Assembly: GCA_029856145.1 (NCBI GenBank) | Contig: JAHQWK010000030.1 | Span: forward strand, 1 to 64,000 | Direction: 5' to 3' | DNA from: Promethearchaeia archaeon | Lineage (GTDB): Archaea > Asgardarchaeota > Lokiarchaeia > Sigyniarchaeales > SOKP01 | DNA length: 64,000 nt | Shown: piece by piece, positions 7,840-18,179 of the stretch | How positions within the stretch are numbered: position 1 is the first letter of the stretch | Layout of the letters: each line of letters starts with the position of its first letter | The notes under the pieces: generated by a model | Seen by the model: the letters and a program-made list of their open reading frames with translations, nothing else | What the model was told of the DNA's origin: nothing | Database searches by the model: none | Made by a program: the position numbers and the translations under genes

Positions 7840-8253
7840 TTTAATTGAAAACTTTTAAAAATAAGTCGAATGAAAAAATGTGCGAAACCATATTAGAAAA
7901 ATTAAAACTTAGAAAAGCGGAATGGTTATTAAAATTTAATTCTATACCTAGAGAAATCATTATCATAAATTCTCACATTTTTGTTTAAATTTTTTCATGA
8001 AAATATGCAAAAATGATCAATTCTCCCTTTCTTTCTTAATGCTTATCGAAATTTCTTGTTCTTAAACTTTCATTAAGATAAAATTTGTTTTGAATCTATA
8101 ATCATAATCTAAAATTTTGCTTACATAGATAAATAGTAAGAAATAAAAATATTAAAAAGAATAAAATCTAAAAGATATAATATTAATTAATGTTATTAAA
8201 TTAAGATTCTACAATCTTGTATAAAAAAATTAGAGGTTGATGTGATAAGAGGA

Positions 8254-10194
8254 ATGGAAAATAAAACTCATCGGATTGGATACTATGCTTGTCAATGAGG
8301 CGTAAATATTAAGACTAAAGTAGGTTGCGATGAATTAGTGGAATATGTGAAAAATCTTGGAGATGAAATCATTATATCAAAGAAAAATTCATTTCTTTGA
8401 ACTGATAATGCTCAAAACGAAATAATTGAGGATATTAACGAAAAGAATTTAAACAGAATTGTGGCATCAGCTTGAACACCGCGCACACACGAGGTGATCT
8501 ACCGAGGGACCATCGCTAAGACAGATTTAAATCCTTATTACTTTCAAATGGTTAATGTACGGGAACATTGTTCTTGGTGTACAGATAGTAAAGAAGAAGC
8601 TACAGAAAAGGCAAAAATCTTAGTGAAAAGTGGTATTGAGAGAGCAAAACTATTGGAGCCAGTTCCTATTAAAACTGTCCCTGTCACTAAAGCTACTTTA
8701 GTTGTAGGAGGTGGAATTGGCGGTATGAATGCAGCTTTGGATCTTGCTAACCAAGGTATTAAAGTCTATCTTGTCGAACAAAAAACTACGATAGGGGGGA
8801 GAATGTCTCAACTTGACAGAACTTTTCCTACAGATGACTGTGCGATATGAATTTGCGGGCCTGTTATGCTCAATATCAATAGAAATGAGAATATTGAATT
8901 ATTAAGCTTTAGCGAAGTAAAGAAAATTGAAGGATATGTGGGTAATTATACTGTTACCATTGAAAAGAAACCACGTTATACAACAGATGAATGTAATGGG
9001 TGTGGAGCTTGTGCTGAAGTGTGTCCAGTTTACACAACAAATTATTTCGACGAAAATTTAGGGGCACGGAGAGCAATTGACATATCATTTGATCAAGCAG
9101 TACCGTTTTTATATGATATAGACAGGAATGCTTGTATAGAATGTTTCTCGTGTGTAGACGCTTGTGAATTAGATGCTATTGATTTTAGTCAAATACCAAA
9201 AGAAGTCAATATTGAAGTTGGGACAGTAATAATAGCAACAGGTTGGGATATTCATGAACCTTATGGTGAATATGGATATGGTGAAATCGAGAATGTTATA
9301 ACTCAAGTTCAACTAGAACGGATTTTAGCTCCAAATGGACCACTTGAAGGCCATGTGCACCGAATTTCAGATGATAAAGAGCCTAAAGAAATTGTTTTTA
9401 TACAGTGCGTGGGAAGTCGAGAAACAGAAAGAACCTATTGTAGTGGTGTATGTTGTATGCTTGCATTAAAAAATGGGCGATTATTACTGGAAGAATTTCC
9501 CGATGCGAACATAACAATCTGTTATATTGATATAAGAACTCCTGAAAAAGGATTTGAAGAATACTATGAACGAGCTAAAGATGCAGGTATTAGAATGATT
9601 CGTGGAAAAGTTGGTGAAATCTCTGAAGATCCTGAAACTAAAAATGTGAAAGTTCGCGTATATTCATCTCTCACAGATAAGATTGTAAAAATTGATGCTG
9701 ATTTAGTTGTTTTATCTACAGCAGCACTCCCTTCAAAAGGTACTGAACAGATTGTAAAAGTATTAAATCTTGATACTAATATGTATGGCTTTCTTACAGA
9801 ATCACATTTCGGTTTAATGCCACAAGAAACAAAGGAAAAAGGAATTTTTATTGCTGGATTTGCTCAGGGACCGAAAAATATTTCTTATTCAGTTTCTCAA
9901 GCTAGAGCTGCGGCTAGTAAAGTTGCTGAGTTAACATCACCAGGAGAAATCGATATAGAACTTATTACTGCGGAGGTGGACAGTGAATTCTGCATTTCTT
10001 GTAGACGATGCGAAAAAGAATGTCCTAAAAATGCCATTAGGATTGAAAAGGATATCGGTGCGTTTATTGATGAAATAAATTGTGACGGATGCGGTATTTG
10101 TGCTACGTGTTGTCCTACTCAAGCAATTGATATCAGATATTATCGAGATCATCAATTATTTGCTGAAATTGATGGTCTTTTAGGAGGTGGTTAA
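8254..10194 (+). CDS. hdrA: Selenocysteine-containing heterodisulfide reductase subunit A (646 aa, 4 Sec: U15, U49, U74, U199)
   Basis: One frame joins ATG 8254 with ORFs 8494-8850 and 8866-10194. In-frame TGA at 8296 (CQUG vs CHCG), 8398 (FLUT vs YTCS), 8473 (SAUTPRTHE vs ASCTPRTHE) and 8848 (DDCAIUI vs NDCAICI), all aligned to Cys of the HdrA paralogs in this window. GGGIGG FAD motif and ferredoxin motifs are intact. Confidence 0.93.
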
Positions 10195-10200
10195 ACAAAC

Positions 10201-10662
10201 ATGAATAATACTTATAATATGATCGTGTTTGCTTGCTTAAAATGAGGATATAGCGCGGCTGATTTAGCTGGGGTTTCCCGATTAAAGTATACTCCTGCGG
10301 TAAAAATTATCAAAGTAAGATGTACCGGTAGAGTTGACATTAAGCACATTTTGTATAGCATTCGTGCGGGAGCTGATGGTGTTATGATTGTCGGTTGAAG
10401 ACCTAATGAATGTCAATTTAAAAACGGTAATTTCACAGCCGAAAGGCATGTTGATTTAGCAAATAGAATCTTAGAATCTAGAGGTTTCGGTAGTCAAAGA
10501 ATAAATATGTATTGGTTAAGTGGAGGAGATGCTGGGAAATTTGTCGAATCTGTCGAGGATGCTTACGAAAAGGTAAAAAAAGCTGGACCAAGTCCACTGA
10601 ACTTAGAACCCGAAGAAATGAAAGTTGATACAAAACAAGTTATAACTACCCCTACAGAATGA
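10201..10662 (+). CDS. mvhD: Selenocysteine-containing MvhD/VhuD [2Fe-2S] subunit (153 aa, 2 Sec: U15, U66)
   Basis: Missed by the ORF track. Translation MNNTYNMIVFACLKUGYSAADLAGVSRLKYTP...VRCTGRVD...GADGVMIVGURPNECQF. TGA 10243 and 10396 align to Cys in CNWCSY and GCHIGDC of the paralogs at 17748 and 30312. Confidence 0.93.
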
Positions 10663-10715
10663 TTCTTATAAACAAATTCTAGTTATAAGAAGACTAACCT
10701 TGCAAGGGAAGGGGT
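10648..10715 (+). ncRNA. Eukaryote-like (Lokiarchaeota-type) SECIS element
   Basis: ATGA (10659-62), stem TTCTTATAA (10663-71), apical region ACAAATTCTAG with unpaired AAA, stem TTATAAGAA (10683-91), GA (10692-93). Lower helix ACCCCT (10648-53) pairs with AGGGGT (10710-15). Lies directly 3' of two UGA-containing genes. Confidence 0.85.
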
Positions 10716-10780
10716 TTTTAAATAGTATTCAATTAAAAATAAAAATTTTTATAGAAAATGTAATCCAAAAGGATGAAAAT

Positions 10781-17747: not shown

Positions 17748-18179
17748 ATGTCTAAGTCAAAAAAGAAAGTAAATAAAAAGGATTTTCACCCTAATATATT
17801 GTGTTTTTGTTGTAATTGGTGTAGTTATGCTGGGGCAGATTTAGCTGGCGTATCTCGTTTTCAATACCCTCCCACTATTAGAATAGTAAGAGTAATGTGC
17901 TCTGGTAGAGTAGACCCGGCTTTTATTTTAGAAGCATTTAGAGATGGGATTGACGGAGTCATTGTGACAGGCTGTCACATTGGTGACTGTCATTATCTGA
18001 AAGGAAATGAGTTTGCAAGAGATAGGTTTGAAAATTTTCAGGAAGTTCTAAAAATATTCAATCTTGAAAAAAGATTTAGACTTGAATGGGTTAGTGCGTC
18101 TGAAGGAAAAAGATTTGCTGAAGTTATTACGGAATTTACAAATGAAATTAAAAAACTAGGTCCATTACAAGCAATTTAA
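17748..18179 (+). CDS. mvhD: MvhD [2Fe-2S] subunit (Cys form)
   Basis: CCNWCSYAGADLAG, VMCSGRVD, GCHIGDCHY and WVSASEG motifs. Confidence 0.93.
   Translation: MSKSKKKVNKKDFHPNILCFCCNWCSYAGADLAGVSRFQYPPTIRIVRVMCSGRVDPAFILEAFRDGIDGVIVTGCHIGDCHYLKGNEFARDRFENFQEVLKIFNLEKRFRLEWVSASEGKRFAEVITEFTNEIKKLGPLQAI

Follow-up and report, generated by a model that had tools for sequence, protein, structure and literature searches.

The window analysed here, a 64,000-nucleotide stretch of contig JAHQWK010000030.1 from a Promethearchaeia archaeon, carries on its plus strand a pair of adjacent genes with several in-frame TGA codons. The first is hdrA, encoding heterodisulfide reductase subunit A (8242..10194), which contains four such codons (8296, 8398, 8473 and 8848), ends in TAA and may have its true start at an ATG four codons inside the 8242 open reading frame. 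Separated from this TAA by a gap of six bases is mvhD, also known as vhuD or frhD (10201..10662), which encodes a protein of 153 amino acids with two further in-frame TGA codons at 10243-45 (U15) and 10396-98 (U66). The mvhD product matches the Pfam FlpD/MvhD family (PF02662) over residues 8-129 (E=4e-42) and continues for some 20 residues past that domain in a charged and variable C-terminal tail. Cys-type paralogs of hdrA are present elsewhere in the window, and the cysteines of a Cys-type mvhD paralog at 17748 align with U15 and U66. There are thus six in-frame TGA codons ahead of the mvhD stop, as a sequence-only reading of this DNA had counted, and all six are probably read as selenocysteine (Sec), with recoding directed by one element behind the hdrA-mvhD pair.

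At its 3′ end, in the frame of the 10201 open reading frame, mvhD reads GAA (10657-59), TGA (10660-62), TTC, TTA and TAA (10669-71). The TGA is also the UGA of the AUGA core (10659..10662) of a SECIS element, so that the gene ends on the core of the element itself, as the same reading had proposed. The lower, closing helix of this SECIS has its 5′ strand at 10648..10653, within codons T150-T152 of mvhD, and pairs with a 3′ strand at 10710..10715, and thus the claim that the lower helix lies inside the coding sequence holds for its 5′ strand. Between these strands the AUGA core abuts an upper stem and apical loop (10663..10691), in which 10663-71 pair with 10683-91 to enclose an 11-nt loop at 10672-82, followed by the 3′ GA of the core (10692..10693), which would form tandem G-A pairs with the AUGA in a predicted kink-turn. 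On the 3′ side of the internal loop RNAalifold predicts a side hairpin, CCU-UGCAA-GGG, at 10698..10708. Directly 3′ of the closing helix there is a short U run (10715-10719), also seen in many orthologs, which is possibly an archaeal transcription terminator ahead of an frhB-like gene at ~10781; a terminator scan of the plus strand returned no match. RNA runs gave assembled contigs of relatives in small shares, none of them extending from hdrA through the SECIS; hdrA and mvhD are presumed to share one transcript.

Comparison of 51 orthologs supports this structure. The upper stem is paired in 99.5% of cases, with two-sided changes in seven of the eight pairs counted, and the lower helix is paired in 82.7% of cells, with two-sided changes in four of six pairs. 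The AUGA core is invariant in all 51, whatever the frame in which the gene reaches it. The apical loop starts with ACAAA and ends with AG, three of its A residues and the G being invariant, and in the core dinucleotide 3′ of the stem the A is invariant, with GA in most orthologs and AA in some. As a whole the structure scores above all 500 shuffles and all slid controls, a rank that is not a probability because the sequences are related by descent. Folding energy of the hairpin alone, compared with shuffles, indicates no unusual stability (z -0.5 to -1.4).

A strict lokiSECIS pattern matches four times in the 3.55-Mb genome, each time behind a TGA-containing reading frame, and the window element is the sole match on its contig. 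A loose AUGA-stem-GA pattern gave 82 matches in the genome and was discarded as uninformative, and a pairing-free pattern applied to 151 genomes returned mostly chance matches, the loci of which were not used. An Rfam scan of the window gave no match at gathering score; in the original study, too, the Loki elements had escaped standard SECIS tools (PMC4989117). On every sequence criterion tested, the window element is a lokiSECIS, or an Asgard type I eSECIS-like element. Specifically, it has an AUGA abutting the stem, a 9-bp stem, an 11-nt loop with an A-rich start and a terminal G, and the GA, and it stands at the end of an hdrA-vhuD pair in a genome that encodes Sec machinery. This machinery comprises tRNA-Sec, SepSecS and two Sec-type selD genes, together with SelB-like and PSTK-like matches that both fall below their family cut-offs. 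The kink-turn fold and the direction of Sec insertion by this element are predicted, as they are in the papers cited here.

The side hairpin, which follows the core GA and precedes the 3′ strand of the lower helix, suggests that the SECIS is folded as a three-way junction. It is 92.7% paired in the 51 orthologs, with limited covariation, and analogous hairpins are found in 51/51, 30/30, 28/30 and 22/22 SECIS of the four mvhD paralog groups, as well as in both selD SECIS of this genome (G000:C9:623863 and 625124), with sequences that differ among the groups. The detector used is permissive, with 30-71% of shuffles passing it, and we therefore base the predicted junction on the paired fraction and covariation, on the RNAalifold fold and on the recurrence of the hairpin at one position. 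The loop of the window hairpin contains UGC. A 3′ side hairpin is absent from the portions of the text of PMC4989117 and PMC11227280 that were available (figures aside), and a literature search found nothing on it.

The genome contains four Sec-type hdrA-mvhD pairs (G000:C2:105900-108450, C2:22400-24900, C25:78200-80700 and that at 8242-10715 of the window), together with many Cys-type copies. A motif search for vhuU found none in the genome, and the search for NiFe-hydrogenase gave one partial match only. The three other Sec-mvhD copies end differently from that of the window, two of them in TAG 5 nt upstream of the core UGA and one in TAA 24 nt upstream. We measured the distance from stop to core UGA, in nucleotides upstream of the core (the offset), for the window ortholog in 55 genomes of its family and for the three further Sec-mvhD paralogs in its genus. 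These counts leave out L029, which lies at a contig end, L030, a distant homolog, and seven paralog-C loci in which a bulge or a longer loop takes the SECIS outside the pattern used.

Among the orthologs the offset is 0 in 36, 4 in six, 5 in five, 7 in one, 17 in five, 18 in one and 19 in one, so that 19 of the 55 terminate 4-19 nt ahead of the core, in any frame. In four orthologs from genus g19 the SECIS is atypical; for these the offset of 4 was scored by eye, and they stand outside the alignment and the TAA comparison described below. In L182-L185 of this genus the upper arm is elongated, partly mismatched and at odds with the 9-bp/11-nt pattern, with the AUGA, the side hairpin and the closing helix kept. 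In paralog A the stop is TAG at offset 5 in 27/30 genes and in paralog B it is the same TAG in 21/30, while in paralog C all 22 genes end at offsets 21-25 in mixed frames. Many SECIS of paralog B (L099-L125) have two or three mismatches at positions 3-5 of the upper stem and are much weaker than those of the other paralogs. Past the last Sec codon, the core UGA is hence the first in-frame stop in the window mvhD, in 36 of the 55 orthologs and in a single paralog-A gene (L098), which acquired this ending independently of the window's group. A single base in the stretch that links the lower helix to the core is sufficient to separate offset 0 from offset 5, as seen on comparing L017 with L161.

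The exact coincidence of stop and core is labile on a tree of 63 rows, built from the HdrA C-terminus and the MvhD core with a quick IQ-TREE run. The core-stop state requires 10 parsimony changes, of which at least 5 are forced by strongly supported branches, and sister genomes can be unlike in this state (L159 vs L161; L170 vs L178). The sequence-only reading had held that orthologs ending at unrelated stops, in random frames relative to the SECIS, would make the overlap coincidental. Family-wide this is largely what we find, with the 19 of 55 orthologs that use other stops or frames and about 10 switches, but it does not hold in the closest clade, a well-supported group of 24 genomes including that of the window, in which every mvhD stops on the core UGA while the tail varies to give proteins of 147 to 157 amino acids. 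This clade without exception, and the fact that 36/55 is above one in three, are the observations that speak against the coincidence of frames being unselected. However, close kin are not independent, coding tails normally change by in-frame indels, and paralogs A and B keep their offset-5 TAG as firmly as these 24 genomes keep their frame.

Our preferred reading, to which we give a probability of roughly 0.8, is that the element is an ordinary lokiSECIS serving the hdrA-mvhD pair, and that the variable tail of MvhD simply runs on to whichever stop codon comes first near the SECIS. As the tail differs in length, the frame in which it arrives would decide which stop comes first, and in the lineage of the window this would be the invariant core UGA. 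Termination there would be expected if a SECIS is unable to recode a UGA within or beside itself; with the core UGA in the ribosomal A site the core would be unfolded, allowing a release factor to win, while a UGA slightly upstream would be under the minimal UGA-to-SECIS distance. The six Sec codons, lying 264-2364 nt upstream, would by comparison face a folded SECIS, and the element would refold each time a ribosome has terminated. The stop would then be shifted by single-base indels in the C-run, in the internal loop or in the tail, giving offsets of 0, 4, 5, 7, 13-19 and 21-25, all of them apparently tolerated.

The explanation offered in the sequence-only reading, that melting of the SECIS makes this one UGA a stop, is partly compatible with this account, in that a UGA in the A site should be incompatible with a folded core. 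Core melting is, however, sufficient and not necessary for a UGA to act as stop, because 45 of 137 Sec-mvhD genes end in TGA and in 8 of these the UGA is off the core, 4 or 24 nt upstream. By comparison, every one of the 133 hdrA stops that were scored, which lie some 450 nt upstream, is TAA or TAG; two apparent hdrA TGA stops proved to be internal codons of a Cys motif, 111-116 nt upstream of the start of the mvhD match. Together, the off-core UGA endings and these 133 hdrA stops reproduce the published minimal-distance rule. In addition, 94 of the 137 Sec-mvhD stops lie at most 7 nt from the core UGA, with four g19 genes scored by eye adding 4, and some melting on termination would therefore be general to these genes and not specific to the frame seen in the window.

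A selected coupling, raised as a possibility in the sequence-only reading, is unlikely. Under it, each ribosome that stops on the core UGA would melt the SECIS and thereby adjust Sec insertion in hdrA and mvhD or act back on it, for instance by limiting recoding when mvhD translation is high. In its favour, transient melting of the SECIS would be physically expected, the core-UGA state is fixed in the 24-genome clade and the proximity of stop and core is conserved. Against it, the exact coincidence was lost or gained about 10 times, the other three Sec-mvhD copies of the same genome lack it, and the core would be melted just as well by termination at a TAG 5 nt upstream. A different SECIS, that of Methanococcus, was unimpaired in function when moved directly behind the coding region (PMC9622424). 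The comparative data do not point to recoding tuned by termination, and nothing in them calls for a coupling. A fuller version is equally improbable. In it the stop is selected to lie at or just before the core, which keeps Asgard ribosomes from translating through the three-armed SECIS and makes the core UGA the deepest stop allowed, while melting and refolding on termination govern how fast a single SECIS can serve the six upstream UGA codons of two genes. If termination did tune recoding, this would be a new control layer in a system thought to precede the eukaryotic SECIS.

A weaker form of selection can be proposed tentatively, as a supplement to the ordinary-lokiSECIS account and not as a replacement for it, whereby translation through the SECIS is selected against and the core UGA is the deepest stop that is tolerated. 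In none of the 137 genes does the stop lie beyond the core UGA on its 3′ side, in a search window that permitted such stops, whereas 111 of the 274 unused frames would do so; this count leaves aside eight loci that have no pattern-matching SECIS. The pattern suggests avoidance of translation through the whole element, although few independent events underlie it, the 137 genes descending from four paralog lineages with, by our estimate, perhaps 15-20 independent switches. It is also conceivable that longer tails were removed for reasons of the protein.

The TAA that follows two codons after the stop is indeed present, as the sequence-only reading had pointed out, but the backup role given to it there is rejected. 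It occupies positions 7-9 of the upper stem, at the stem top, where it pairs with UUA, and it is kept in 33/36 in-frame and 14/15 out-of-frame orthologs (Fisher P=1). Its retention is thus independent of frame and its presence is explained by the pairing of the stem, although it may act incidentally as a second stop; it is missing in the in-frame genes L159, L165, L167 and L098. The same TAA would provide a tidy extension of 3 residues in 33/36 in-frame orthologs if some ribosomes decoded the core UGA as a seventh Sec, which would leave a U-F-L C-terminus with a terminal Sec like that of thioredoxin reductase. We regard this as highly improbable, since the extension is translated stem and is variable (UFL, UIL, ULL, UVL, USL, UFS, UIF), and the Cys-type paralog has no counterpart of a terminal Sec. 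It would also run to between 4 and about 30 residues in the in-frame orthologs lacking the TAA (L159, L165 and L167), and orthologs in other frames keep no terminal Cys or Sec. Moreover, the SECIS in cis should be unable to remain folded while its own UGA is decoded, and the distance here is 0, against a eukaryotic minimum UGA-SECIS spacing of 51-111 nt, established for Dio1 (as cited in PMC3316567).

The overlap of stop and core had been taken to be undescribed, which is not the case, and the window is a further clean example of it. The lokiSECIS, and the hdrA-vhuD pair sharing one such element, were defined by Mariotti et al. 2016 (PMC4989117), who reported that the AUGA motif of VhuU.1 doubles as the stop codon and that SBP2 was undetected in Loki. 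More recently, Huang, Xiao and Zhang (2024), whose study covers about 1,200 Asgard selenoprotein genes, in the passages available describe UGA stops of Lokiarchaeia selenoproteins as often overlapping the AUGA motif (PMC11227280). The window element is like the lokiSECIS of Mariotti et al. in its AUGA, 9-bp stem, 11-nt A-rich loop ending in AG and GA, in standing singly behind an hdrA-vhuD pair that can have as many as six UGA-Sec codons, in partly overlapping the coding sequence, and in having a core UGA as stop behind an hdrA that never ends in UGA. It differs from their explicit example in the text available to us, VhuU.1, in that the gene here is mvhD/vhuD and the overlap is the majority state of one ortholog group. 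It also agrees with the type I eSECIS-like form, given in the passages available as common to hdrA and frhD (PMC11227280), and those passages do not count the overlap by frame or along a phylogeny as is done here, nor do they mention a side hairpin.

With the eukaryotic type I SECIS the element shares the AUGA/GA core, the apical adenines and a minimal UGA-to-SECIS distance, but the eukaryotic upper stem is longer. In mammals the SECIS is in the 3′ UTR, with a Sec-UGA distance of at least 207 nt (PMC3316567). What the comparison across genomes indicates is that the core-UGA stop is one of several interchangeable stop positions and not a special switch. The bacterial SECIS is found just 3′ of the UGA that it recodes and binds SelB directly. 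Like the bacterial in-frame element, for which refolding is described (PMC13188914), that of the window overlaps the coding sequence and would be melted by the ribosome and refold, but the UGA that it overlaps is the one that is not recoded. When genes of this kind are annotated, their final UGA should not be called Sec, and the stop offsets of 0 to 25 nt on nearly identical SECIS provide a natural series for the minimal-distance rule.

Other putative Sec codons were observed in the course of this comparison. At L036 (G000:C9:622849-624880) selD is present as a tandem pair. Both genes contain an in-frame TGA and have a type II-like SECIS of their own, the core UGA of which is in frame, 12 nt past a TAA stop. 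At L034 (G000:C9, ~170600-170990) two TGA codons stand side by side in an open frame (HAD-U-U-ADV) that is followed by a strict lokiSECIS at C9:170922, which makes it a candidate tandem-Sec selenoprotein. Finally, hdrA of L014 and L179 carries one more TGA (INCDG-U) in its C-terminal ferredoxin motif. It takes the place of the second Cys in the final CxxC cluster motif, a position that is Cys in the window protein, and appears to be a further Sec position in some HdrA orthologs.
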